From positions 6,600-70,599 of the forward strand of contig JAGVYS010000002.1 in the NCBI GenBank assembly GCA_018303125.1: 64,000 nucleotides of DNA. The letters are read 5' to 3'. Shown piece by piece: positions 18,610-44,566 of this stretch. The translations under genes and the position numbers were made by a program. The notes under the pieces were generated by a model. It ran no database searches, was not told the origin of the DNA, and was given only the letters and a program-made list of their open reading frames with translations. Source of the stretch: Candidatus Woesearchaeota archaeon (GTDB lineage Archaea > Nanobdellota > Nanobdellia > Woesearchaeales > WJIZ01). How positions within the stretch are numbered: position 1 is the stretch's first letter; the number at the start of each line of letters is the position of its first letter.

Positions 18610-18704
18610 GAGAGCAGCTTATGCAGTGTATATTTAATTCTTATCATTTATTTTTTAGGCAGAAAAACGAAACTAATAAAAATAAAGTATGAATATGCCA
18701 TACC

Positions 18705-19769
18705 ATGGATATAGAGCCCATACTTGCATATTCCTTTTTAGGAAATACCGTGAAGCAGTACGCTATTTCAGCAGGGATTTTCATAATCACATATGTTGTT
18801 CTGAGCTTGTTCAAATTTGGGGTTATAAAGAAACTTAAGAAACTAGCATTAAAGACAAAAACAGAGATAGATGACCTATTGGTGCAAATTCTAGACAATA
18901 TACACTGGCCTTTCTACTCTTTTATGTCTTTGTTCGTTGCCTCCCAATATCTGCAGCTGCATCCTTTTGCAAGCAGGATATTGTCCTACATTTTTATCAT
19001 AGTCTCAGGCTACTATGTTGTAAAGGCACTCCAGGACCTGATTAAATACGGGACAAGCAGTATAATAAAAAAGCAGCAGGAGACAGACAAGAATTTTGAC
19101 AGCACTGCGCTGGAATTGCTTAGCAAAATAGCAAAGATAATCCTATGGGTCCTTGCCGGAATACTTATACTCTCCAATCTTGGATATAATGTTTCTACAT
19201 TGCTTGCCGGCGTTGGAATAGGCGGCATAGCCATAGCCTTTGCATTGCAGAATATCCTCTCGGATATATTCTCCTCATTCTCAATCTACTTCGACAAGCC
19301 GTTCCAGAAAGGCGACCTCATAGTGATAGGCCCTGATAAGGGCTATGTCAGGAAGATAGGCATAAAATCCACCAGAATACAGACAATGGAAGGCCAGGAA
19401 TTGGTTGTCCCGAACAAGGAGCTTACGAGCATAAGAATAAACAATTTCAAGAAAATGGAGAAAAGGAGGGCCATATTTAGGTTTAGTGTTGTTTATGAAA
19501 CTTCATTATCAAAGATGAAAAAGATTCCTGAGATAGTAAACAAGATTATTGCTTCAACAGAGAATGCTGAGTTCGAAAGGGTCCATTTCAAAGAATTCGG
19601 TGATTTCAGCCTCAACTATGAGGCTGCATATTTCCTTAACTCAAACAAAGAGAATATTTACAGGGATGCGCAGCATAAGATAAACCTTGCACTTAAGGAG
19701 GCTTTTGAGAAGGATGGTATTTCTTTAGCCTATCCAACCCAGAAACTCTACCTTGCTAAGGAATCCTGA
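18705..19769 (+). CDS. MscS-family small-conductance mechanosensitive channel
   Basis: TM3-like LLAGVGIGGIAIAFALQNILSDI followed by beta-domain FDKPFQKGDLIVIG...GYVRKIGIKSTRIQT. Confidence 0.8.
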   Translation: MDIEPILAYSFLGNTVKQYAISAGIFIITYVVLSLFKFGVIKKLKKLALKTKTEIDDLLVQILDNIHWPFYSFMSLFVASQYLQLHPFASRILSYIFIIVSGYYVVKALQDLIKYGTSSIIKKQQETDKNFDSTALELLSKIAKIILWVLAGILILSNLGYNVSTLLAGVGIGGIAIAFALQNILSDIFSSFSIYFDKPFQKGDLIVIGPDKGYVRKIGIKSTRIQTMEGQELVVPNKELTSIRINNFKKMEKRRAIFRFSVVYETSLSKMKKIPEIVNKIIASTENAEFERVHFKEFGDFSLNYEAAYFLNSNKENIYRDAQHKINLALKEAFEKDGISLAYPTQKLYLAKES

Positions 19770-28825: not shown

Positions 28826-29521
28826 ATGAGAGCAATAGTTCTTGCAGGCGGGCTTGGAACAAGACTGAAGGGGTACATAGAAAAGATTCCCAAAGCCCTC
28901 GTGCCTCTCAACGGAAAGCCGCTGATAGAGCATGTCCTTGGCATTCTGAAACGAAATGGAGTAAAAGACATAATGATAAGCGTAGCATACATGAAGGAAA
29001 AGATTACAGAAGCGCTCGGAGACGGAAAAAGATTAGGGCTAAACATATCTTATATCGAGGAGCCTGAGCCTTTAGGGACAGCCGGCCCGCTCATAATACT
29101 TGCAAAGGAAAAAAAGCAGATTAATGAAAGCTTTTTTGTTGTAAACTCTGACAACCTCCTTGAGATTGACATGAAAAAAATGATTCATTTCCATAAAAGC
29201 AGGAAAGCGTCCTGCACTATAGCACTTGTTGAAGTTGAAAAGCCAGAAAGCTATGGTGGTGCTGTGCTTGAAGGAGACAAAATAATCGAATTTGTTGAGA
29301 AACCGAAAGAAAAGGTATCCAATTTTATAAATTCAGGGTATTATATAATGGAGCCGGAAGTTTTCGGCATAGTAGAAGGAATGGAAAAGGCAATGATTGA
29401 AAAGGATGTATTTCCTGTCCTTGCGAAAAAAGGAAAGTTATATGGATTTATGTGTCATGGAAAATGGTTTGATGTTGGCACTCCAGAAAGATATGCGATG
29501 GCTGAGAGCGAGTGGAGATAA
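28826..29521 (+). CDS. sugar-phosphate nucleotidyltransferase (NTP_transferase family)
   Basis: MRAIVLAGGLGTRLKGYIEKIPKALVPLNGKPLIEH signature G-loop; overall RmlA/ManC-like fold. Confidence 0.75.
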   Translation: MRAIVLAGGLGTRLKGYIEKIPKALVPLNGKPLIEHVLGILKRNGVKDIMISVAYMKEKITEALGDGKRLGLNISYIEEPEPLGTAGPLIILAKEKKQINESFFVVNSDNLLEIDMKKMIHFHKSRKASCTIALVEVEKPESYGGAVLEGDKIIEFVEKPKEKVSNFINSGYYIMEPEVFGIVEGMEKAMIEKDVFPVLAKKGKLYGFMCHGKWFDVGTPERYAMAESEWR

Positions 29522-34657: not shown

Positions 34658-35070
34658 TTTATCTTGACCCCCATGTTTTGTGAATATCCCGAGCTTAAAC
34701 CCGGTGATGTTCCTTTTACGAGTGTAGATTTACATTTATATTTAAAGTTTTCGATTATTGAGTATACCGGAGTAGTTAAACAGATAAACTATCTTATAGT
34801 AAAAATTATTTCTCCATATAATCTCCCATCCAGTTCATATTCAATGTTCATGCTCCATTCTGTATTCCTGCCAAAATATATTGTCTACTAAAGCAACAAA
34901 GCTGCTCGTCACTAGAGTACATAAATTACGGAATTCTTGTTTTAATTGGCTAACTGTAAACTTACAAATATTCACAAATAATTGCAATTTCTCCTCTCAG
35001 CTTGCATTTTTGCGCATGAAATAGTCATTCAAAAACTTTATATAGTGTCCTCTTACCCTGCAGCTATTCG

Positions 35071-38000
35071 TTGGTGAGTTTTAAATTGGAAAAGAAAGAT
35101 GATGACTTGGTTCTGGACTTCACAAGGGTGAAGAATTTTTTCAAGAAGTCAGACAAAACCGATTCTCCTGCAAAAGAGGGCAGCAATGACAAAGTTTCGC
35201 ACCAGGATGAAGAGATATCATTCAATTTTTCCAAGGTAAAGGGATTCTTCAAAGGCCTTGGCAAAAAAAAAGAAGATGAGAAGCAAAATGATGATTTGTC
35301 ATTTGATGCTAAAAAGGCACTTATCTGGATAATGAAATACCGTACGCTCTTGCTCCTCATCATACCATTATTTCTTGCAATATCAATAAGATGGGTGCCT
35401 GCATATTTGCCAATAACAGATGACTGGGCTGAAAACGCTATAGCCAACAGCATAAGGCAGCAGATTTCAAATGAAATTAACGCAAAGTATCCAAACCTGC
35501 CTGAGGCCAACAAGGCAACCCTTATCAATGGCCAATTGCAGCAGTTCATCAAGGCGAATGAGAAGTCAATAAACGACCAGAAAAAAGAAGTTTCTCAGCA
35601 GTTCAAGTCGCAATTACAGAAGGGAGACCAATCTTACCCGACAGATATTGACCAGTTTTTTTGGCTAAGGTATGCTGAAAACATTATCGAGAGAGGGCAT
35701 CCTGGCGACGAGCTTAGAAACCCTCAGACAAGAGAGATATGCGAAAAAATCAGTAAGAACTGTGTGCCATGGGATAACCATATGTATGCCCCTATGGGAG
35801 GGGAAGTCTCCAAGGACATGTTCAACGCTTATGTTATTGCTTATTGGCATAAGGCATGGACTGTGTTTGAGCCTGGCGCAGACCTCCTGCGCTCTGCATT
35901 TGCAGTGCCAATAATTTTTTCTGCCTTGGCAATAATTCCTGTTTTCTTCATAGCTAGGCGTGCATGCGGGAATTTTGGGGCTTTTGTCGCCTCCATAATA
36001 GTCGCTGTGCATCCAGCATTTTTGATAAGGACTTTCGGCGGCTCTGCAGACACCGACCCCTATAATGTATTTTTGCCGCTCATTATAACCTGGCTTTTCC
36101 TTGAGTCATTTGAATCAAAGAGCCTGAAGAAGAATATCGCATTAAGCTTTGTTGCAGGGATATGCGTTGCAATCTATAGTATAACCTGGGGGGGATGGTG
36201 GTACATTTTTGATTTTCTTGTAATCTCTCTTTTGCTATTCATGGTTATATATGTTTTCCTGCATAGGGACCAGTTAAATAACATACTTGCCCAAAGGACT
36301 ATCAGGCTCTCTGCCATGACACTGGCTGTATTCTTTTTTACCTCGCTTATATTCACGACAATGTTTACAAGCTACTCTACATTTGAAAACGCAATAAATG
36401 GCCCAATTGGATTCACCAAGTTTAAGGAAGTTGCAGTATCAACAATCTGGCCAAATGTATTCACAACAGTAGCAGAGCAGAACCCTGCATCACTTGAGGG
36501 TGTAATAAATCAGGCAGGCATAGGCAGCATCTTGCTCTTCTTGTTATCAATAGTGGGGATATCAATCAGCCTGATAAAGCCTAGAAGTTCGAAAGCAGCA
36601 GATGGGCTTTATTTTACCATAACTCTGGTTTGGTGCTGGTTTGTCCTCTGGCTCAAGCCAGATAGCCTGATGTTCTTCCTTTTCCTGATAAGCCTTCCAA
36701 TCATTGGCAGGATTGCTCTTGCCGTATATAAAAAGGAGATGGATCTGGATTTCAAACTGGCAATCATACTGATGATATGGTTTGGCTCAACCATATACGC
36801 AAGCACTAAAGGGATAAGATACACATTGCTTATTGCTCCTATAGCTGGCATAGGGATAGGCATAGCCCTTGGTTTCATCTATAATTTTGCTAGCTATTAT
36901 GCTGCTAAATATATGAATACTGGCAAAGTAGTTACTAAAATAATAGCAATGGCCGTCATACTTGCAATATTCATTCCTGGGCCATACAGCAAAGCAACCG
37001 ACTTGGCAAAGCAGCAGGTACCAATAATGAATGATGCATGGTATGATTCTTTGGACAAGATAAAGCAGGAGTCGGCGCAGAATGCCATCATAAATTCCTG
37101 GTGGGATTATGGGCACTGGTTTAAGGCCGTGAGCGACAGGGCAGTAACATTTGATGGAACATCTCAGGATACTCCGATGGCACACTGGATAGGAAATGCA
37201 TTGCTTACAAATGATGAAGATCTTGCTGTTGGAATACTTAGGATGCTTGACTGCGGCTCTGTAATGGCATTCTGGAAGCTTAATAGTGAAATAAATGACG
37301 GAACTAGATCTGTTGACATCCTCTATAAGGTATTAGTGATGGACAAAGAAAGCGCAAGAAAAGAGCTACTGGGGCATATAGGCCAAAGCACAGCTGAAGA
37401 AGTATTGAAATATACCCACTGTGAGCCCCCGGAGAACTACTTCATAACATCAGATGATATGATATCAAAATCTGGTGTGTGGGCTCATTTTGGAAGCTGG
37501 AATTTTGATAAGGCATTTATCTATAATACGCTAAAGAGCAAGGAGTATGTTAACAACAAGCAACGCGGTGTTGAATTCCTCAAAGATAGGTTTAATTACA
37601 CTGACAAGGATGCTGAAAATGTATACAGGGAAGTGAGTTTCATAACAAACAGTAACGATGCAAACTCATGGATAGCCCCATGGCCATCATATGGGTCAAG
37701 GCTTTCTGGGTGCTCAACAAGGGAAGATAATATTATCTGCCCTCTTCAGACAGAGAATGGAGGAATTGCAAACGTTGACATAAACCTGAAAAACAGGACA
37801 GCCAACATAATGTCCTCAAATGGGATTGTCCATCCTAAAGCAGTTGTTTTCCCTACCAAGGATGGCATAGATAAGATAGAGTATCCTGACAGCCCTGTTG
37901 GTTTTACAATGACGCTTATCCCATCAGGAGATTCATGGAGCTACATAATGATGTCTGCGCCGCTTGAAGACGGTATTTTCACAAGGCTGTATTTCCTGGA

Positions 38001-38175
38001 TGGCCATGGCCTGACAAAGTTCAGGAAATTCTCTGATATGACCTCATTTACAGGCAATAGGATAGTTATCTGGAAAATTGATTGGAATGGAACCAATAAG
38101 AACCTCGTTTACTTCAATGAAGAAGCCCCTAGTTTGCAAGAGAATATATCTGATGTTAATGCCTCAAACCAATGA
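35071..38175 (+). CDS. aglB: oligosaccharyltransferase AglB (STT3 family)
   Basis: Catalytic WWDYGHW motif (INSWWDYGHWFKAV), EL1 acidic motif ITDDWAEN after TM1, 13-TM N-terminal half plus ~450-aa C-terminal periplasmic domain; ~85-aa N-terminal extension with two copies of an LxFxxVKxFFK motif. Confidence 0.9.
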   Translation: MVSFKLEKKDDDLVLDFTRVKNFFKKSDKTDSPAKEGSNDKVSHQDEEISFNFSKVKGFFKGLGKKKEDEKQNDDLSFDAKKALIWIMKYRTLLLLIIPLFLAISIRWVPAYLPITDDWAENAIANSIRQQISNEINAKYPNLPEANKATLINGQLQQFIKANEKSINDQKKEVSQQFKSQLQKGDQSYPTDIDQFFWLRYAENIIERGHPGDELRNPQTREICEKISKNCVPWDNHMYAPMGGEVSKDMFNAYVIAYWHKAWTVFEPGADLLRSAFAVPIIFSALAIIPVFFIARRACGNFGAFVASIIVAVHPAFLIRTFGGSADTDPYNVFLPLIITWLFLESFESKSLKKNIALSFVAGICVAIYSITWGGWWYIFDFLVISLLLFMVIYVFLHRDQLNNILAQRTIRLSAMTLAVFFFTSLIFTTMFTSYSTFENAINGPIGFTKFKEVAVSTIWPNVFTTVAEQNPASLEGVINQAGIGSILLFLLSIVGISISLIKPRSSKAADGLYFTITLVWCWFVLWLKPDSLMFFLFLISLPIIGRIALAVYKKEMDLDFKLAIILMIWFGSTIYASTKGIRYTLLIAPIAGIGIGIALGFIYNFASYYAAKYMNTGKVVTKIIAMAVILAIFIPGPYSKATDLAKQQVPIMNDAWYDSLDKIKQESAQNAIINSWWDYGHWFKAVSDRAVTFDGTSQDTPMAHWIGNALLTNDEDLAVGILRMLDCGSVMAFWKLNSEINDGTRSVDILYKVLVMDKESARKELLGHIGQSTAEEVLKYTHCEPPENYFITSDDMISKSGVWAHFGSWNFDKAFIYNTLKSKEYVNNKQRGVEFLKDRFNYTDKDAENVYREVSFITNSNDANSWIAPWPSYGSRLSGCSTREDNIICPLQTENGGIANVDINLKNRTANIMSSNGIVHPKAVVFPTKDGIDKIEYPDSPVGFTMTLIPSGDSWSYIMMSAPLEDGIFTRLYFLDGHGLTKFRKFSDMTSFTGNRIVIWKIDWNGTNKNLVYFNEEAPSLQENISDVNASNQ

Positions 38176-38834
38176 AAGATTCTATATGGGCAGTCATAGC
38201 TGCCAAGAATGAGGGGAAAAATGTTACTTCTGTCATAAAGAAGGCATCTAAGTATGTAGATAACATAATTGTTGTTGATGATGGTTCCACGGATAATACA
38301 AAGGTTGCCTCAAAAAGGTCAGGAGCCATAGTTCTCAGCCATATAGTCAACCTTGGAAAAGGTGCTGCCATAAAGACAGGCTGCGAATATGCCATAGGAA
38401 AAGGCGCCACTATAATAGTGCTTGTTGACGGAGACGGTCAGCATGAGCCAAAGGAGATTCCCCGATTCATAGAGGCACTGAGGAACAGCCAAGTAGCATT
38501 AGGTGTCAGGACAAAAAGAGGTAGCATGCCTACAGTGCTCAAGTTCGGAAATTCTTTCATTAACAATGCCGCGAGAGCATTATATGGGATAAATATAGAT
38601 GACACACAGTGCGGATTCAGGGCTTTCAGGGCTGATGTGTATAATTCTATCGTATGGAGAAGTTCTGATTATAGCATGGAATCAGAGATGATTGCCAACA
38701 TAGGAAAGAAAAGATTAAAATATGCAATAGTTCCGATAAGCACAATTTATGCAGACAAGTATAAAGGAACAACTGTAATTGACGGCATAAAGATTGTATT
38801 CAATATGGTATGGTGGAGAATATCGAGGTTTTAG
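38172..38834 (+). CDS. GT2 glycosyltransferase, dolichyl-phosphate-sugar synthase-like (DPM1/AglJ/AglD-type)
   Basis: AVIAAKNEGKN...IIVVDDGSTDNT...VDGDGQHEP (DxD) GT-A signature; translationally coupled to aglB (ATGA overlap). Confidence 0.8.
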   Translation: MKDSIWAVIAAKNEGKNVTSVIKKASKYVDNIIVVDDGSTDNTKVASKRSGAIVLSHIVNLGKGAAIKTGCEYAIGKGATIIVLVDGDGQHEPKEIPRFIEALRNSQVALGVRTKRGSMPTVLKFGNSFINNAARALYGINIDDTQCGFRAFRADVYNSIVWRSSDYSMESEMIANIGKKRLKYAIVPISTIYADKYKGTTVIDGIKIVFNMVWWRISRF

Positions 38835-38835
38835 T

Positions 38836-39162
38836 ATGGTACTAGGAATACAGGTAGCTGGGCTTTGTTTTGGCCTTTTTATGATATACTATTCTTTCCT
38901 GCATTACAAGAGGAAAGAATTCACAATAAAAGAATTTAGCTTCTGGCTCGTACTATGGACTGCCTTTTCTTTTGTCTCACTGTTTCCGCAGAGCCTTGAT
39001 TTCTTTGTAGAAAGGCTCAACCTGAACAGGACAATGGACCTCTTCACAATAGCTGGCTTCATGACTCTTCTTGCTATCTTTATTTACACCTATAGCCTTG
39101 TCAGGCAAAACCAAAGAAAACTTGAGATGATAGTCAGGAAGTTCGCAAAGGAAAAGAGATAA
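38836..39162 (+). CDS. small 3-4 TM membrane protein, DUF2304-like partner of Dol-P-sugar synthases
   Basis: Start immediately after the GT2 stop; ~108 aa, hydrophobic, basic C-terminus; architecture typical of DUF2304 proteins encoded next to DPM1-like GT2s. Confidence 0.35.
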   Translation: MVLGIQVAGLCFGLFMIYYSFLHYKRKEFTIKEFSFWLVLWTAFSFVSLFPQSLDFFVERLNLNRTMDLFTIAGFMTLLAIFIYTYSLVRQNQRKLEMIVRKFAKEKR

Positions 39163-39222
39163 AGCAGTATTCTACCAATAATCAACAAAAGGTTATTATA
39201 CCTTTGTAAGGACTTTTCCTCT

Positions 39223-40320
39223 GTGGTAATGCTGGTCAAGGTCTTGGACAAGTATATTGGTGCAGTAATGTGCCTACTGCTCTCTCCTATATCCATTGCC
39301 ATAAAAAACAAGTTTCCTGAAAAAGCAAGAAAAATTTTGCTCATACAGCTATGGGGGGTAGGGGAAAGCATTCTAACTCTCCCTGCGATAACTGAATTAA
39401 AAAAGAAGTACAAAGGAAGAAGCATAGCAGTACTCTGTACTGAAAGGAACAAGGCAGTATACTATAATCAGGGCGTAGAAATAATAGAATTATCGATGAA
39501 TCCTTTACTTATAGCTTTTTTCCTCCTGAAAAATATGAGGAAATTTGATATAGTGGTTGATTTTGAGGAATATTTGAAAATATCTGCAATAATTTCTTTC
39601 CTTTTAGGGAAGTACTCGATAGGGTACTCCCACGGAATAAGAAGCAAACTATATTCTGTCAAAGTCAGGTACAACGACGTACAGCATGTTTCGCAGACAT
39701 TTGCAGATTTGTTAAATCCTCTATGTATATCAGCAAAAATACAGGAGTTAACAAAGCTGAAGTATGGAAAAGAGGATATGGACCATATTAACAAGCTTCT
39801 AAATAAGATAAAGATGAAAAATGGAAAGATTGCCGCGATATCTGCAGGGGCCGCAGAATCAGCAAAATGCAGGATGTGGCCAAAAGAAAAATGGGCAGAG
39901 CTCATTGACAGGATACCATACGAAAATGTTCTCCTTATAGGTGGAAAAGATGTCTACAGGGAGAATGAAGAAATACTAGGTATGCTAAAAAGCAGGAAGC
40001 ACGTCTGTAATATAGCTGGGATGACAAGCCAAAATGAGCTTTTCGCGCTTATGGAAAAAGTAAGCCTTGTTATTTCAATAGACTCAGGCCCGATGCATGT
40101 TGCAGCAGCCCAGAGAATAAAGACTGTAGGCTTATTCTGCCCAAATACTCCTGTAAGGTTTGGGCCTCTTGGCAAAGGCAATATCTCAATATACAAGCCT
40201 GTCCTTCCTAAACCGTGCATAAATGTACACAAGGGTGAAGTTCCAAACTGCGGCAGGCATAACCATATGAGCAAAATAGCTGTTGAAGATGTCTTTCAGG
40301 CAGCCCGCAAATCAATTTGA
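39223..40320 (+). CDS. GT9-family glycosyltransferase (heptosyltransferase-like)
   Basis: KILLIQLWGVGESILTLPAI N-terminal Gly loop and the GT9 C-terminal block DSGPMHVAAAQRIKTVGLFCPNTPVRFGPL. Confidence 0.75.
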   Translation: MVMLVKVLDKYIGAVMCLLLSPISIAIKNKFPEKARKILLIQLWGVGESILTLPAITELKKKYKGRSIAVLCTERNKAVYYNQGVEIIELSMNPLLIAFFLLKNMRKFDIVVDFEEYLKISAIISFLLGKYSIGYSHGIRSKLYSVKVRYNDVQHVSQTFADLLNPLCISAKIQELTKLKYGKEDMDHINKLLNKIKMKNGKIAAISAGAAESAKCRMWPKEKWAELIDRIPYENVLLIGGKDVYRENEEILGMLKSRKHVCNIAGMTSQNELFALMEKVSLVISIDSGPMHVAAAQRIKTVGLFCPNTPVRFGPLGKGNISIYKPVLPKPCINVHKGEVPNCGRHNHMSKIAVEDVFQAARKSI

Positions 40321-40329
40321 CAGAATATC

Positions 40330-41064
40330 CTATCCGAAATGCTCATACTCTCCGTAAGTAAAAAAACCAACGAGCTCCTTAATTCTTGCAAGCAATGGGA
40401 ACAGGTCCTTCTCAAGCGAAGGCTTATTTATCAGCTCAAATATTTCAGGCTTGAATATGTATATGCCCGCATTAACAATGTGGGAACTCATTTCCCTTGT
40501 CTTCTCGCTAAAGTCAACTATAAGATCGCCATCTAGGATAGCTGTCCCATATTCATCAGGCTTTTCCCTGGTCATAAGCCCCATGGTAGCTAGCTTGTTC
40601 AACTGAATATGTTTGCTTATCATCCTGGATATGTCAAAGTTGTTGTATGTATCTCCTGACATCACAACGAAATTTCCCCTGACCCTTTCCTTAAAAGTCA
40701 TCAATGACAGAGAATTGCCTCTAGAATTTGACTCAATTATTTCTATTGGCATACCTATAAGCGATTCTCTTAGCTCCTTATTTGGCTGTTCTGTGATAAG
40801 ATATATTTTGCTGATTCCGTTTTTAATGAAAAATTCCGCTTGGCTGCCTATTAGGCTCTTCCCCTTAAATTGCTTCAATGCTATATCCTGATGTGACCTC
40901 TTAAGCAGAAGTACTGCCTCTCCGACAGAATTTGAGGACATGCCCTTTCTTAGGTAATACTCTATAGCCTGGCTCCTTGACCTAAGCATCGTACCATCTA
41001 CTCCCGAGTCTATGAGTTTTAGAAGTGAATTATCTATTGAAATTGCAATTTTTTCTTTTAACAA
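40330..41064 (-). CDS. fusion of an N-terminal ribbon-helix-helix-like segment with a degenerate sugar-nucleotidyltransferase domain (candidate regulator)
   Basis: N-terminus KIAISIDNSLLKLIDSG...RSRSQAIEYYLRKGM resembles CopG/Arc RHH; remainder aligns with the NTP_transferase ORF at 28826 (GKSLIG..., YGTAILDGDLIVDFSEK, NAGIYIFKPEIFE, EKDLFPLLA) but lacks the catalytic LAGGxGTRL loop. Confidence 0.45.
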   Translation of the reverse strand: MLKEKIAISIDNSLLKLIDSGVDGTMLRSRSQAIEYYLRKGMSSNSVGEAVLLLKRSHQDIALKQFKGKSLIGSQAEFFIKNGISKIYLITEQPNKELRESLIGMPIEIIESNSRGNSLSLMTFKERVRGNFVVMSGDTYNNFDISRMISKHIQLNKLATMGLMTREKPDEYGTAILDGDLIVDFSEKTREMSSHIVNAGIYIFKPEIFELINKPSLEKDLFPLLARIKELVGFFTYGEYEHFG

Positions 41065-41161
41065 GGTAATACCTAGTATTACTAAATTATATTTAAATCT
41101 TTCTCTAAACTATGAAAAGGTTTATATATGATAAAGAGATAAGTATGAGAAAGTATTACCA

Positions 41162-41728
41162 ATGATAAAAATGGAAAAAATAGAAAAAATGATTGATGAG
41201 AGCATTGAAGCAAAAAGGCACCTGTACAATGAATCCGGCAGTATAAAAAAGGCTGTAGAGGCCATAAAGCACTGCTTCAGGAGCGGCAACAAAGTGCTCA
41301 TTTTTGGAAACGGCGGCTCTGCTGCTGACTCTCAGCACATGGCAGCTGAATTTGTGGGCAGATACAAAAAGGAGAGGAAAGGCCTCCCTGCCATAGCTCT
41401 TACCACAGATAGCTCCATATTGACAGCATGGTCAAATGATTACACCTATGAGACTATATTCGAAAGGCAAGTTGAAAGCTTGGCCAAAAAAGGAGACGTA
41501 CTTATCGGCCTTTCAACATCTGGAAACTCAAAAAACGTAATAAAAGCGATGGAAAAAGGAAAGGAGTTGGGAACAATAAACATATCACTCACAGGAAAAA
41601 AAGGAGGAAAGTTAAAAGAGACCAGCGACATTAATATAAATGTAGAATCGGATAATACGCCCAGAATACAGGAATGTCATCTTCTGGCTTACCATATAAT
41701 TTGCGAACTTGTGGAGGAAGACCTATGA
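41162..41728 (+). CDS. gmhA: D-sedoheptulose 7-phosphate isomerase (SIS domain)
   Basis: SIS-domain motifs KVLIFGNGGSAADSQH, IGLSTSGNS, EC...LLAYHI characteristic of GmhA. Confidence 0.85.
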   Translation: MIKMEKIEKMIDESIEAKRHLYNESGSIKKAVEAIKHCFRSGNKVLIFGNGGSAADSQHMAAEFVGRYKKERKGLPAIALTTDSSILTAWSNDYTYETIFERQVESLAKKGDVLIGLSTSGNSKNVIKAMEKGKELGTINISLTGKKGGKLKETSDININVESDNTPRIQECHLLAYHIICELVEEDL

Positions 41729-42609
41729 GATGCGTAGTAACAGGTGGCGCAGGTTTCATTGGATCAAATCTTGCGTTGCATCTTGAAAATGAAGGCGAAG
41801 AGGTCGTGATAGTTGATAATTTCAAGACAGGTAAAGAGGAAAACTTAGCCGGATTCAGGGGAGAAATAATAAAGGCAGATGTATCAGGAAAGTTCGATGT
41901 GAATGGAAAAGTAGATGTAATATTCCATCAGGCTGCAATAACTGACCCAAGACACGAGAATGATGATGAGACAATAAGAGATAACTTATCTGGATTCAGG
42001 AACATATTAAGCATGGCCATGGATAAAAAAGCAAAACTCATCTATGCTTCATCGGCTAGCATGTATGGCAATGGTCCCGCACCGCAAAAAGAAGACCAAG
42101 AAAAAGAACTATTCACAGCTTATTCTAAATCAAAACTTATGATCGATAATTTAGCTAAGGAATATCTCAGGAAGATTCACATTGTAGGGCTAAGATACTT
42201 CAATGTTTTCGGTCCGAGGGAGAAATACAAAGGCAGGGCAGCATCAATGATTTATCATCTTGCAAGGCAAATGAAAAGCGGCAAAAATCCGAGGATATTC
42301 AAAATGGGCGAGCAGAGAAGGGACCATATATATGTAAAAGACTGCGTTACAGCTAATATTAAGGCCATTAATGGGGAGCCCGGAGTGTATAATGTCGGGA
42401 CTGGGATTTGCACGTCATTCAATGATCTTATTGCCATGATAAACAAATCACTAGGCACTAATCTAAAGCCCGAGTACATTGACAATCCATACGAGAAAAC
42501 TTACCAGAAGAATACACAGGCAGATACGTCAAAAACAGAGAAGCATCTAGGATTTAAGGCAAGATACGGGCTCCAGAAAGCCATAAACGAGTATGTGGTA
42601 GAATTATGA
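41725..42609 (+). CDS. hldD: ADP-L-glycero-D-manno-heptose 6-epimerase (ORF-track start 41674; Met at 41725 with GGAGGA SD and ATGA overlap preferred)
   Basis: MRCVVTGGAGFIGSN, YASSASMYG, LRYFNVFGPRE, YQKNTQAD blocks match HldD/RfaD. Confidence 0.85.
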   Translation: MRCVVTGGAGFIGSNLALHLENEGEEVVIVDNFKTGKEENLAGFRGEIIKADVSGKFDVNGKVDVIFHQAAITDPRHENDDETIRDNLSGFRNILSMAMDKKAKLIYASSASMYGNGPAPQKEDQEKELFTAYSKSKLMIDNLAKEYLRKIHIVGLRYFNVFGPREKYKGRAASMIYHLARQMKSGKNPRIFKMGEQRRDHIYVKDCVTANIKAINGEPGVYNVGTGICTSFNDLIAMINKSLGTNLKPEYIDNPYEKTYQKNTQADTSKTEKHLGFKARYGLQKAINEYVVEL

Positions 42610-43577
42610 AGGATTTCAAAAAATGCCTGGAAGATTTCAGGAATAAGAAGATAGTAATACTTGGCGACCTGATGCTTGACAAGTATATATTCGGGAAAGT
42701 AGACAGGATATCACCTGAGGCACCAGTCCCAATAGTTAGAGTAGAGAGTGAAAAATATGTGCCAGGAGGCGCAGCAAATGCTGCTGCCAACGTATCCGCA
42801 CTTGGAGGGGAAGCCCATCTGTTCGGGATAGTAGGCAATGATTCTGCAAAGGACATATTTATGGATGTGGCAAAATCAAGTTTCATCAAAACAGATGGGG
42901 TGATAATTGACAAAAAGAAGCCGACCATACAAAAAATAAGGGTGCTTGGACCTATTCAACAGTTGCTCAGGATTGACTATGAGGATGTAGACTATATCAG
43001 CAAGGATATCCATGAGGCCATTTTAAGAAAGATAATGGTTTTAAGAAACGTTGACGCTATTATAATATCAGACTATGCGAAGGGAACAATAACAAAGGAT
43101 CTATTGGGAAAAGTAATCGCATATGCAAAGGAAAGGAATATTCCTGTAATAATAGACCCAAAGCCGAAACATGCAGAGTTGTACGTGGGGGCTACAATCA
43201 TAACACCCAACAAAAAAGAGGCAGAAGAAATAGTAAAGCACAGTATAGACACCATGGAAGATGTTGAAAAAGCAGGAAAGAGCATTTCTGAGAAGTTTGA
43301 TTGCTCTGTTTTGCTGACGTTAGGAGAGAAAGGAGTTGCCTTATTCGAAAAGGGAAAAAATGCAGTGCATATACCAGCAATAGCAAGGGAAGTTTTTGAC
43401 GTTTCAGGGGCAGGAGACACAGTTATAGCTACACTAAGCCTTGCGTTATCTTCAGGAGCATCATTGAGTGATGCTTCTATAATCGCAAACCATGCTGCCG
43501 GAATAAAGGTAGGAAAGATCGGGACAGCGCCAGTTTATCTTAACGAGCTTTCAAGAAGCTTAGAGAAATCATTATGA
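42606..43577 (+). CDS. hldE: D-beta-D-heptose 7-phosphate kinase (stand-alone HldE domain I, pfkB family)
   Basis: ILGDLMLDKYIFGKVDRISPEAPVPIV, PGGAANAAANVSALG, DVSGAGDTVIATLSLAL match the HldE N-terminal kinase domain. Confidence 0.85.
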   Translation: MKDFKKCLEDFRNKKIVILGDLMLDKYIFGKVDRISPEAPVPIVRVESEKYVPGGAANAAANVSALGGEAHLFGIVGNDSAKDIFMDVAKSSFIKTDGVIIDKKKPTIQKIRVLGPIQQLLRIDYEDVDYISKDIHEAILRKIMVLRNVDAIIISDYAKGTITKDLLGKVIAYAKERNIPVIIDPKPKHAELYVGATIITPNKKEAEEIVKHSIDTMEDVEKAGKSISEKFDCSVLLTLGEKGVALFEKGKNAVHIPAIAREVFDVSGAGDTVIATLSLALSSGASLSDASIIANHAAGIKVGKIGTAPVYLNELSRSLEKSL

Positions 43578-44566
43578 TGCCAAAAGCAATATTTCTTGAC
43601 AGGGATGGCACACTGGTTTTTGACCCTGGATATGTCCACAGGATAGAGGATTTCAAGCTCCAGGAAAACACTGACAAAGCGCTGAAAAAGATAAAAGGCT
43701 ATTTGCTTTTTATAGTGACAAATCAGTCAGGAATAGGCAGGGGCATATTCAGTGAAGAGGATATGCACAAGTTCAACAAATTGCTTATAGAAACATTAGC
43801 AAAAAGCGGAGTGTCAATAGAAAAAATATATTTCTGCCCACATAAACCTGAAGACAACTGCAAGTGCAGGAAGCCGGAAACAATGATGATTAAAGAAGCG
43901 ACAAAAGATTACAGCATAGACATTAAAGATTCTTATATGATAGGAGACGATGTGTGTGACATTGAACTCTCATCTAGGGTAGGCTGTAAAGGCATACTCG
44001 TACTAACTGGTTTTGGAAAGAAAAGCTTGAAGGAAGCAAGGATGTTCTCCCCTCATTATATATCTGCAAATCTTGAGCAGGCGTGTGACTTCATAATGTT
44101 GCAGAAGCCAGATAAGATTATAGCTAGGAAAGACATTCCGTCAATTGTCAGAAAAATAAGGGGAGAAGGCAAGAAAATAGCAACTCTAAACGGGACATTT
44201 GACATATTGCACAAAGGACATTCAAAAATAATAAATGAGGCAAGGAAAACTGCTGATGCGCTTATTGTTGGCATCAACTCTGACAGCTCTGTTAAGGGAA
44301 ACAAGGGAAAAGAAAGGCCGTTCAACAGCGATACAAAAAGAGCGCTGATGCTTTCAGTGTTCAAGGATATTGATTATGTGACGATTTTCGATGAAAAGAC
44401 ACCCATTGAAATGCTTGAAATTATAAAGCCTGATGTTCATGTCAATGGCTCTGAGTATGGCGAGGAATGCATAGAAGCAGAAACTGTAAGAAAAAACGGC
44501 GGGAGGATATGCATAGTAAAGCTTGTGCCGGGCTTTTCAACCACAGATCTTGTCAAGGAGCGATAA
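43574..44566 (+). CDS. gmhB: bifunctional D,D-heptose 1,7-bisphosphate phosphatase (GmhB, HAD) / D-beta-D-heptose 1-phosphate adenylyltransferase (HldE domain II) fusion
   Basis: N-terminus AIFLDRDGTLV...VTNQSGIGRG...CPHKPEDNCKCRKP (GmhB, including the Cys-x-Cys zinc site); C-terminus ATLNGTFDILHKGH...NSDSSVKGNKG (cytidylyltransferase-like HldE-II). Confidence 0.85.
   Translation: MMPKAIFLDRDGTLVFDPGYVHRIEDFKLQENTDKALKKIKGYLLFIVTNQSGIGRGIFSEEDMHKFNKLLIETLAKSGVSIEKIYFCPHKPEDNCKCRKPETMMIKEATKDYSIDIKDSYMIGDDVCDIELSSRVGCKGILVLTGFGKKSLKEARMFSPHYISANLEQACDFIMLQKPDKIIARKDIPSIVRKIRGEGKKIATLNGTFDILHKGHSKIINEARKTADALIVGINSDSSVKGNKGKERPFNSDTKRALMLSVFKDIDYVTIFDEKTPIEMLEIIKPDVHVNGSEYGEECIEAETVRKNGGRICIVKLVPGFSTTDLVKER

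Follow-up and report, generated by a model that had tools for sequence, protein, structure and literature searches.

We analyzed a 64,000-nucleotide (nt) stretch of a Candidatus Woesearchaeota contig (JAGVYS010000002.1), referred to here as the window, and focused on the gene at 40330..41064 on the minus strand. According to the list of open reading frames (ORFs) and the sequence, this gene encodes 244 amino acids and begins with TTG. Its product combines a ribbon-helix-helix (RHH) DNA-binding domain with a degenerate sugar-1-phosphate nucleotidyltransferase fold, and the best reading of it is that it is probably an autoregulated repressor of heptose-nucleotide synthesis in which a pseudoenzyme acts as the sensor. 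Our in silico results establish the pair of domains, the missing catalytic motifs, the conserved gene order, and the operator motif and its position. Binding of the regulator to the 7-base-pair (bp) heptads that lie between it and the heptose genes is very probable, and repression is the probable output. A heptose-derived ligand is a tentative proposal, one that we would place slightly below even. The regulated set is predicted to be the heptose-nucleotide operon and the regulator itself, not the whole glycan island in which they lie.

An earlier, sequence-only reading of the window had placed this gene on the opposite strand between a GT9 gene and the heptose operon, which is where it is (between GT9 at 39223-40320 and gmhA, with its start at 41162 or 41171), and had suggested a transcription factor that uses a retired nucleoside diphosphate (NDP)-sugar-binding fold as its sensor. 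The first part of that suggestion has gained an operator-like motif at both divergent promoters, across ~80 species; its ligand-sensing part is something we still infer. The reach that it proposed, the whole glycan island, has been narrowed to the heptose operon and the regulator's own gene.

Domain architecture and family

Residues 1-47 (40924..41064, minus strand) make up the RHH domain, with the strand KIAISID and helices at about 12-21 and 30-43, as assigned from a family profile, Pfam and an AlphaFold2 (AF2) model. The profile built from family N-termini matches the RHH domain of E. coli NikR (1q5v) at E=2e-9, with positions 4-44 against NikR 2-42, and it also matches Pyrococcus and Helicobacter NikR, CopG (1e-3) and the RHH antitoxin Rv0298 (E=7.5e-7). 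RHH_1 (PF01402) is matched by 28 of 30 family N-termini (best 1.4e-7), and NCBIfam gives a weak NikR match, confined to residues 5-47 and far under the model cut-offs. The likeness of the first ~45 residues to CopG/Arc repressors, which the sequence-only reading had noticed, is thus borne out. The opposing case that it had set up, an N-terminus that is simply a divergent first beta-alpha-beta unit of the Rossmann-like fold, is not what we see: in the AF2 monomer, which has a mean predicted local distance difference test score (pLDDT) of 72.7, two helices at 12-21 and 30-43 precede beta1 of the nucleotidyltransferase at 49-54, and the N-terminus is a separate RHH domain. Residues 1-45 have pLDDT values of 40-54 in this model, which was built for the monomer only, and show helices but no strand; such low confidence is to be expected of an RHH, which needs its dimer partner in order to fold. 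Looking for covariation between the recognition strand and the heptad sequence was uninformative, since this strand, K-x-K-I-A-I-S, does not vary within the Woesearchaeota set.

Residues 49-244 (40333..40920, minus strand) have the degenerate nucleotidyltransferase fold, assigned by PF00483, alignment and Foldseek, and are proposed to be an effector-binding and oligomerization domain. Foldseek matches the AF2 model to GDP-mannose pyrophosphorylases, RmlA (E ~1e-12), glucose-1-phosphate cytidylyltransferase, MurU and GlmU (to 1e-9). The window also encodes an intact enzyme of this fold at 28826-29521, which matches PF00483 over its full length. The alignment to it that the sequence-only reading had drawn from residue ~60 to 244 is reproduced, with residues 62-244 of the regulator against 24-218 of the enzyme at 32% identity (E=3e-30). 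The regulator itself matches the Pfam NTP_transferase model PF00483 at residues 67-218 (E=1.2e-16, 61.5 bits against a cut-off of 21.2), but this match enters the 245-position profile as late as position 28, and the signature loop is therefore missing. In its place, at residues 55-60 (KRSHQD; 40885..40902, minus strand; alignments A2 and A4), a shortened loop replaces GGxGTRLxxxxxxPK. The multiple alignment has AVLLLKRSHQ in the regulator instead of AIVLAGGLGTRLKGYIEKIPK and, over a longer stretch, AVLLLKRSHQ--DIAL instead of AIVLAGGLGTRLKGYIEKIPKAL. The replacement of the catalytic loop, already remarked on in the sequence-only reading, turns out to be a 9-residue deletion relative to intact-loop relatives and the window enzyme, which removes both the Arg of GxGTRL and the lysine of PK. 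The second metal-binding Asp (W-x-D-x-G-T) is gone as well: the motif aligns to Y240-E241-H242, with the subfamily-invariant His242 at the Asp position, and the chain ends two residues later. A third change is that of G-T-A to G-N-S or G-N-A.

What has been kept is a different part of the site. G116, D138, Y172-G173, E187-K188, N198 and G200 are invariant in 28 orthologues, and D138, G173, E187, K188, N198 and G200 are common to intact enzymes, in the sugar-phosphate pocket motifs G-D, Y-G, E-K-P and N-x-G-x-Y. We take the invariant positions to correspond to the RmlA-type base/ribose edge, the first metal site and the sugar-phosphate binding residues. Conservation of catalytic Lys and Asp residues had been named at the outset as a sign of an active enzyme, and here the outcome is divided: D138 and K188, which belong to the product/sugar-phosphate class, are kept, and the Arg and Lys that contact the nucleoside triphosphate (NTP) phosphates and the second Asp are lost. 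The catalytic, NTP-phosphate half of the site has thus been lost and the product/sugar half kept, the pattern expected of a ligand-binding pseudoenzyme. The C-terminal domain is most likely catalytically inactive, and judged by its sequence, which lacks three defining catalytic features, the protein should not be filed as an enzyme.

The same domain might instead be a dead enzyme that binds no ligand and acts as an oligomerization scaffold, holding RHH dimers on adjacent heptads in a ligand-independent autoregulator. The common occurrence of nucleotidyltransferase folds as dimers or tetramers suits this explanation, as do the indirect route by which we arrive at the ligand's identity and the low confidence, in the AF2 model, of residues 166-199, the lid over the sugar pocket. 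A role as scaffold does not predict the invariance of the pocket residues listed above, however, and we consider it unlikely.

Alternatively, the protein could be a bifunctional trigger enzyme in the manner of PutA, making an NDP-sugar at an unusual active site as well as binding DNA. The invariance of D138, E187-K188 and the sugar pocket would fit such an enzyme, and enzyme-RHH fusions do occur, since the intact GGxGxRL...PK loop is found behind an RHH domain in ~9 of 128 full-length family representatives and lost in the other ~119. The Woesearchaeota subfamily, however, has neither the signature loop, with its Arg, nor the PK Lys and has His in place of the second metal Asp; furthermore, the heptose operon has its own HldC-type adenylyltransferase, and the window holds the intact paralogue at 28826. 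Taken together, these make a trigger enzyme improbable in this subfamily.

The intact-loop representatives also bear on the history of the family. Their presence among the RHH fusions indicates that the fusion is older than the loss of catalysis, and complete enzyme-RHH fusions apparently still exist. One intact-loop protein (P0253; L086 6378-7873) is encoded on a bacterial-looking contig with genes for trigger factor, ClpP and UvrC. Its gene is divergent from that of a dTDP-sugar isomerase and has the heptads ATCCTAC-TTT-TTCCTAC ahead of its own ATG. Given this contig, the family may extend beyond the archaea and may include active enzyme-repressor fusions.

The window protein is 100% identical to P0001, which was deposited under the name 'hypothetical protein' with a Candidatus Woesearchaeota metagenome-assembled genome (MAG). 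Its start codon is confirmed by the N-termini (M-x-K-x-K-I-A-I-S) of more than 120 full-length homologues that are 57-70% identical to it. A word-indexed protein search with the regulator returned 671 matches. The best 120 of these are all full-length proteins of 241-289 amino acids, 57-70% identical to the regulator, and come from Woesearchaeota/Nanoarchaeota MAGs and metagenomes; full-length orthologues at about 55-70% identity are spread over ~80 Woesearchaeota/Nanoarchaeota species. An exhaustive search of 50%-identity representatives finds 339 clusters at E<1e-10, with identities down to 27% and alignments that typically span residue 1-3 to ~240 of the regulator. Named members come from Aenigmarchaeota, Micrarchaeota, Nanohaloarchaea and Nanoarchaeota, and several of them pass the RHH_1 threshold. 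In public databases family members are called NDP-sugar pyrophosphorylase, mannose-1-phosphate guanylyltransferase, sugar phosphate nucleotidyltransferase or hypothetical protein.

Predicted operators and the heptose locus

Between the divergent regulator and heptose genes, the family has a consensus 17-bp palindrome, GTATGAA-N3-TTCATAC (consensus operator sequence GTATGAACTTTTCATAC). It follows an element resembling a transcription factor B recognition element and TATA box (AAAGnTTTAAATA or TTTATATA) and precedes the first heptose gene's start codon, and transcription is expected to begin right there. The core GTATGA-N5-TCATAC, with at most two mismatches, is found within 300 nt upstream of the regulator in 67 of 80 loci, and the consensus palindrome is perfect, and at the same place, in 59 of the 80. 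The 23.4 kb of such upstream DNA holds 59 perfect cores and the other 862 kb holds 9, all of which also lie upstream of the regulator, further away at -436 to -2744. In an alignment of the intergenic regions the palindrome is the only conserved block besides loosely conserved A/T-rich, TATA-like positions, and the window's TTTATATA box occupies the place, with respect to the operator, that is conserved over 66 aligned sites.

The regulator's own promoter carries a second kind of site. Its TATA box is directly followed by two or three nTnnTAC heptads (GTAATAC, CTACTAC, TTCATAC) with an exact 10-bp period, and this order of TATA box, heptads and ATG is found in most loci. Of 80 loci, 52 have two or more TAC triplets in this phase ahead of the regulator's ATG, compared with 0.85% of random control windows. 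The array stops 1-2 nt short of the ATG in 24 of 44 loci, and this implies that the mRNA is leaderless and that the site covers its start.

The window has both kinds of site, and all three of the matches to the heptad-pair pattern in its 64 kb fall within the regulator/gmhA intergenic region. Predicted operator A (41143..41159), placed by the position of the family motif, consists of the two heptads GTATGAG-AAA-GTATTAC between the TATA box and gmhA. Predicted operator B (41066..41082), recognized by the heptad-pair pattern and by homologous arrays, is the perfect palindrome GTAATAC-TAG-GTATTAC and ends 1 nt before the regulator's start codon. The two TATA-like boxes were read by eye as putative promoter elements: TTTAAATA at 41090..41097 on the minus strand for the regulator, and TTTATATA at 41121..41128 on the plus strand, with AAAGG before it, for the heptose operon. 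A fixed helical phasing between operators A and B was considered and rejected, as their distances scatter over 55-94 bp, mostly 64-88 bp, with an outlier at 137.

The position of these sites is the reason that we favor repression, because both lie downstream of TATA boxes and over predicted start points. Archaeal repressors such as MDR1, NrpR and TrmB classically bind there, downstream of the TATA box or over the start. The same protein and sites could conceivably stimulate the heptose operon when effector is bound, making the regulator an activator or a dual regulator. The direction of regulation is after all deduced, and in some loci the palindrome adjoins the TATA box, a geometry in which some archaeal factors assist TBP/TFB; but with both operators downstream of their TATA boxes and the own-gene site adjoining the start codon, we think activation improbable. 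It is less probable still that the palindrome is a hairpin in the 5' leader RNA or the site of another factor, with the RHH domain used for protein-protein contacts as in antitoxins: GTATGAA-N3-TTCATAC could pair as a 7-bp hairpin and RHH domains do occur in antitoxins (such as the Rv0298 match), but the palindrome arms are invariant and do not covary, many sites, among them operator A and the arrays at the regulator's own promoter, repeat the heptad in one direction and could not fold into hairpins, the heptads follow the family into other phyla with different neighbors, and no conserved toxin partner was seen nearby in the loci examined.

That the heptads follow the protein and not the heptose genes is indicated by distant family members near other genes. 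Four heptads, ATCATAC-TTT-TTCATAC-TTA-ATATGAT-TTC-GTATGAA, accompany a member from Aenigmarchaeota (31% identity) whose divergent neighbor is a genuine NTP_transferase gene. A Micrarchaeota member heads an operon with a UDP-GlcNAc-2-epimerase-like gene and an NTP_transferase gene and has GTATGAG-GCG-GTATGAA over its ATG. A second link is to NikR: the operator of E. coli NikR is GTATGA-N16-TCATAC (PMC7055735), and the operator hexamers GTATGA and TCATAC are identical to its half-sites. Together with NikR being the closest solved RHH protein, this identity ties the heptads to the regulator.

Beyond the divergent promoters we found little that could extend the regulon. Three other loci (L001, L002 and L004) have no conserved heptad site ahead of AglB, and a role as regulator of the whole glycan island was rejected on this ground. 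The window itself has a weak operator-like match at 35014-35030 (GCATGAAATAGTCATTC), just upstream of a TATA-like CTTTATATA and ~40 nt before the AglB start, which is probably due to chance because it has no counterpart in those three loci. The window's best match to the operator consensus, at 18687-18703 (GTATGAATATGCCATAC), is separated by 1 nt from the ATG of an MscS mechanosensitive-channel gene (18705-19769). We considered this gene as a second member of the regulon and did not adopt it, as 0.38 such matches are expected by chance and two MscS homologues lack the site in their upstream DNA. A metagenome-wide scan with GTATGAANNNTTCATAC was likewise abandoned as a route to the regulon: ~110 of 120 hits are in unrelated contigs of all GC contents and ~10 are at heptose loci, and the low-GC hits have no informative neighbors. 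Two metagenome contigs carry multiple copies, with 8 of GTATGAAnnnTTCATAC in L188 (185-830), several of them at a 42-bp period, and two copies 23 bp apart in L113 (3246-3285), upstream of a 261-amino-acid ORF.

The neighborhood of the regulator is conserved, as shown by counts over 79 distinct loci of GTDB representative species: 70 have heptose genes upstream of the regulator and divergent from it, and 59 have a GT9 gene directly downstream and convergent; most of the exceptions are loci that end at contig edges. In the window, this GT9 heptosyltransferase gene (39223..40320, plus strand; PF01075, E=5.5e-31) is the last of an AglB-GT2-DUF2304-GT9 operon (35071-40320, with AglB(STT3) at 35071), and the convergent stop codons of GT9 and the regulator leave only the gap at 40320-40330. 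The order AglB(STT3)-GT2-DUF2304-GT9 recurs beside the heptose genes in most of the 79 loci, which implies that a heptose-containing, AglB-dependent glycan is a core feature of this archaeal group.

On the other side of the regulator, the predicted target operon is on the plus strand and begins with gmhA, encoding sedoheptulose-7-phosphate isomerase (41162..41728; TIGR00441, 223 bits against a cut-off of 209; SIS_2 in Pfam). It continues with an ADP-glycero-manno-heptose 6-epimerase-like gene (41674..42609; TIGR02197, 269.5 bits, just below the cut-off of 274.6), a heptose-7-phosphate kinase gene of the HldE domain I type (42606..43577; TIGR02198, 375 bits against 345) and a gene that fuses the phosphatase GmhB to an HldC-type heptose-1-phosphate adenylyltransferase (43574..44566; PRK08942, 165.6 bits; TIGR02199, 151.9 bits; HAD and CTP_transf_like in Pfam). 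These genes are predicted to encode a complete beta-type ADP-heptose pathway, with its own adenylyltransferase of a fold unrelated to that of the regulator. Homologue N-termini indicate that gmhA probably starts at the ATG at 41171 (MEKIEKMIDE...) and not at 41162 as in the ORF list, and the epimerase gene probably starts at the ATG at 41725 (MRCVVTGGAGFIGS), overlapping the gmhA stop by 4 nt, and not at 41674. The GmhB and HldC-type parts share one 330-amino-acid ORF in the window and are separate adjacent genes in L001, L002 and L004. The first gene of the operon also varies: it encodes a SIS-type GmhA in 28 of 79 loci, the window included, and a Cupin_2 protein of 122-136 amino acids in 35 (for example L001 7507-7875 and L004 7457-7867, both on the minus strand), with faint matches to lyxose isomerase. 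This cupin may be a non-orthologous replacement of sedoheptulose-7-phosphate isomerase.

Proposed mechanism and significance

We propose that the protein works as a one-component regulator. Its NikR-like RHH domain would dimerize and bind the heptads, TTCATAC or GTAATAC, that lie 10 bp apart, with one RHH dimer per heptad. In the NikR-DNA complex one RHH dimer sits on each NikR hexamer. Dimers on heptads 10 bp apart would lie on the same face of the DNA in the fashion of Arc-type operators, and the nucleotidyltransferase-fold domains would bridge them. Occupied sites would cover the predicted start points at both promoters, so that the protein would repress both the heptose operon and its own gene. 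An effector is suggested by the conserved half-pocket: the C-terminal domain probably binds a sugar nucleotide or a sugar-1-phosphate and couples its occupancy to cooperative DNA binding. Our best guess is that the NDP-heptose end product serves as corepressor, which would be the simplest feedback, with heptose-1-phosphate as the alternative. The outcome would be feedback control of the heptose supply for the N-glycan.

Several observations weigh against this reading. Most generally, DNA binding, the direction of repression, and the binding and identity of the ligand are all things that we infer. Taken alone, the window protein scores 15.6 bits against RHH_1, below the cut-off of 20.5, and the AF2 monomer is of low confidence both in the RHH segment (1-45) and at 166-199. 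D138 and K188, which are part of the catalytic apparatus of real enzymes, are kept, and residual or altered chemistry in the C-terminal domain is formally still conceivable. NCBIfam does not place this domain nearer to the heptose-specific HddC than to nucleotidyltransferases of other kinds. As for the operators, operator A of the window differs from the consensus at 2 of 12 positions and is a direct, not an inverted, pair, and no recognizable heptads were seen at two distant family members.

We found no description of an RHH-nucleotidyltransferase fusion regulator in the literature searched. A commentary (PMC11461863) points to a 2024 Science study of NDP-heptose biosynthetic enzymes across kingdoms, and that literature makes no mention of the regulator. 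If our reading holds in full, this would be the first transcription factor known to sense NDP-heptose (or heptose-1-phosphate), a DPANN-wide RHH class with a fossil NDP-sugar pyrophosphorylase as sensor and with living intermediates from active fusions to pseudoenzyme sensors, and the only dedicated receptor for activated heptose besides the animal kinase ALPK1. So far-reaching a claim is possible but, on balance, doubtful. Were it true, the regulator could serve as a biosensor for activated heptose.

To our knowledge gene regulation in DPANN archaea is almost unexplored, and very few of their transcription factors are recognizable. The regulator, which is well conserved in this poorly understood radiation of tiny, uncultured cells, comes with an operator predicted at base-pair level, a target operon and a few candidate ligands, and the protein and all of these can be tested in vitro without cultivation. 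It also corrects a systematic enzyme annotation error in public databases. More broadly, it would be an RHH one-component regulator with an unprecedented sensor fold, adding that fold to those known for RHH regulators, and its family offers a natural series for how an enzyme turns into a receptor. The finding also suggests that these archaea control how much activated heptose is supplied to the AglB-linked glycan.

Comparison with known systems

The closest relatives in design are the RHH regulators that respond to an effector. The regulator works like NikR or MetJ in joining an RHH to an effector, but it is not a member of the NikR family, because the ACT-like nickel domain is absent. It shares with NikR, the closest solved RHH (1q5v), the order of an N-terminal RHH and a C-terminal effector domain, the identical operator hexamers GTATGA/TCATAC and, as proposed here, control of operator binding by the effector domain. 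NikR's C-terminus, however, is an ACT-like, nickel-binding tetramerization domain with a His/Cys nickel site, whereas that of the regulator is a nucleotidyltransferase fold. The half-sites also differ in spacing, 5 bp in the regulator, which puts them in adjacent major grooves, against 16 bp in NikR, and the regulator has direct-repeat arrays too. Finally, NikR's effector is a metal and the one proposed for the regulator is a sugar metabolite.

In the layout of its sites the regulator resembles Arc, MetJ, CopG and omega, all of which use tandem short sub-sites, several RHH dimers and cooperative contacts. Omega in addition accepts heptads in direct or inverted orientation, as is seen in the regulator loci. 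These proteins are nevertheless small and single-domain, with MetJ binding S-adenosylmethionine on the RHH itself, unlike the regulator with its extra domain of 195 residues.

The use of a metabolic enzyme fold as the effector domain of a transcription factor is familiar from NagC/Mlc, which have the fold of ROK kinases, and from BirA. These have helix-turn-helix DNA-binding domains and other enzyme folds, and we know of none among them that uses the NDP-sugar pyrophosphorylase fold. PutA comes nearer in that an RHH is fused to an enzyme fold and controls divergent genes of the same pathway, and it is the best analogue for the intact-loop minority of the family. It is, though, an active enzyme that switches between membrane and DNA and has an unrelated enzyme fold, whereas the regulator has lost its catalytic motifs.

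For the sensor itself the nearest parallel is GMPPA, along with eIF2B gamma and epsilon, in which the same nucleotidyltransferase fold has gone out of catalysis and been reused as a regulatory or product-sensing module. GMPPA is an inactive paralogue of GDP-mannose pyrophosphorylase that binds GDP-mannose as a feedback sensor, and the GMPPA/GMPPB structures 7d72-7d74 are among the best structural matches of the regulator model. GMPPA acts allosterically on a partner enzyme and has a C-terminal left-handed beta-helix and no DNA-binding domain; in the regulator, by contrast, the same kind of retired enzyme fold sits behind an RHH domain, and its output would be transcriptional.

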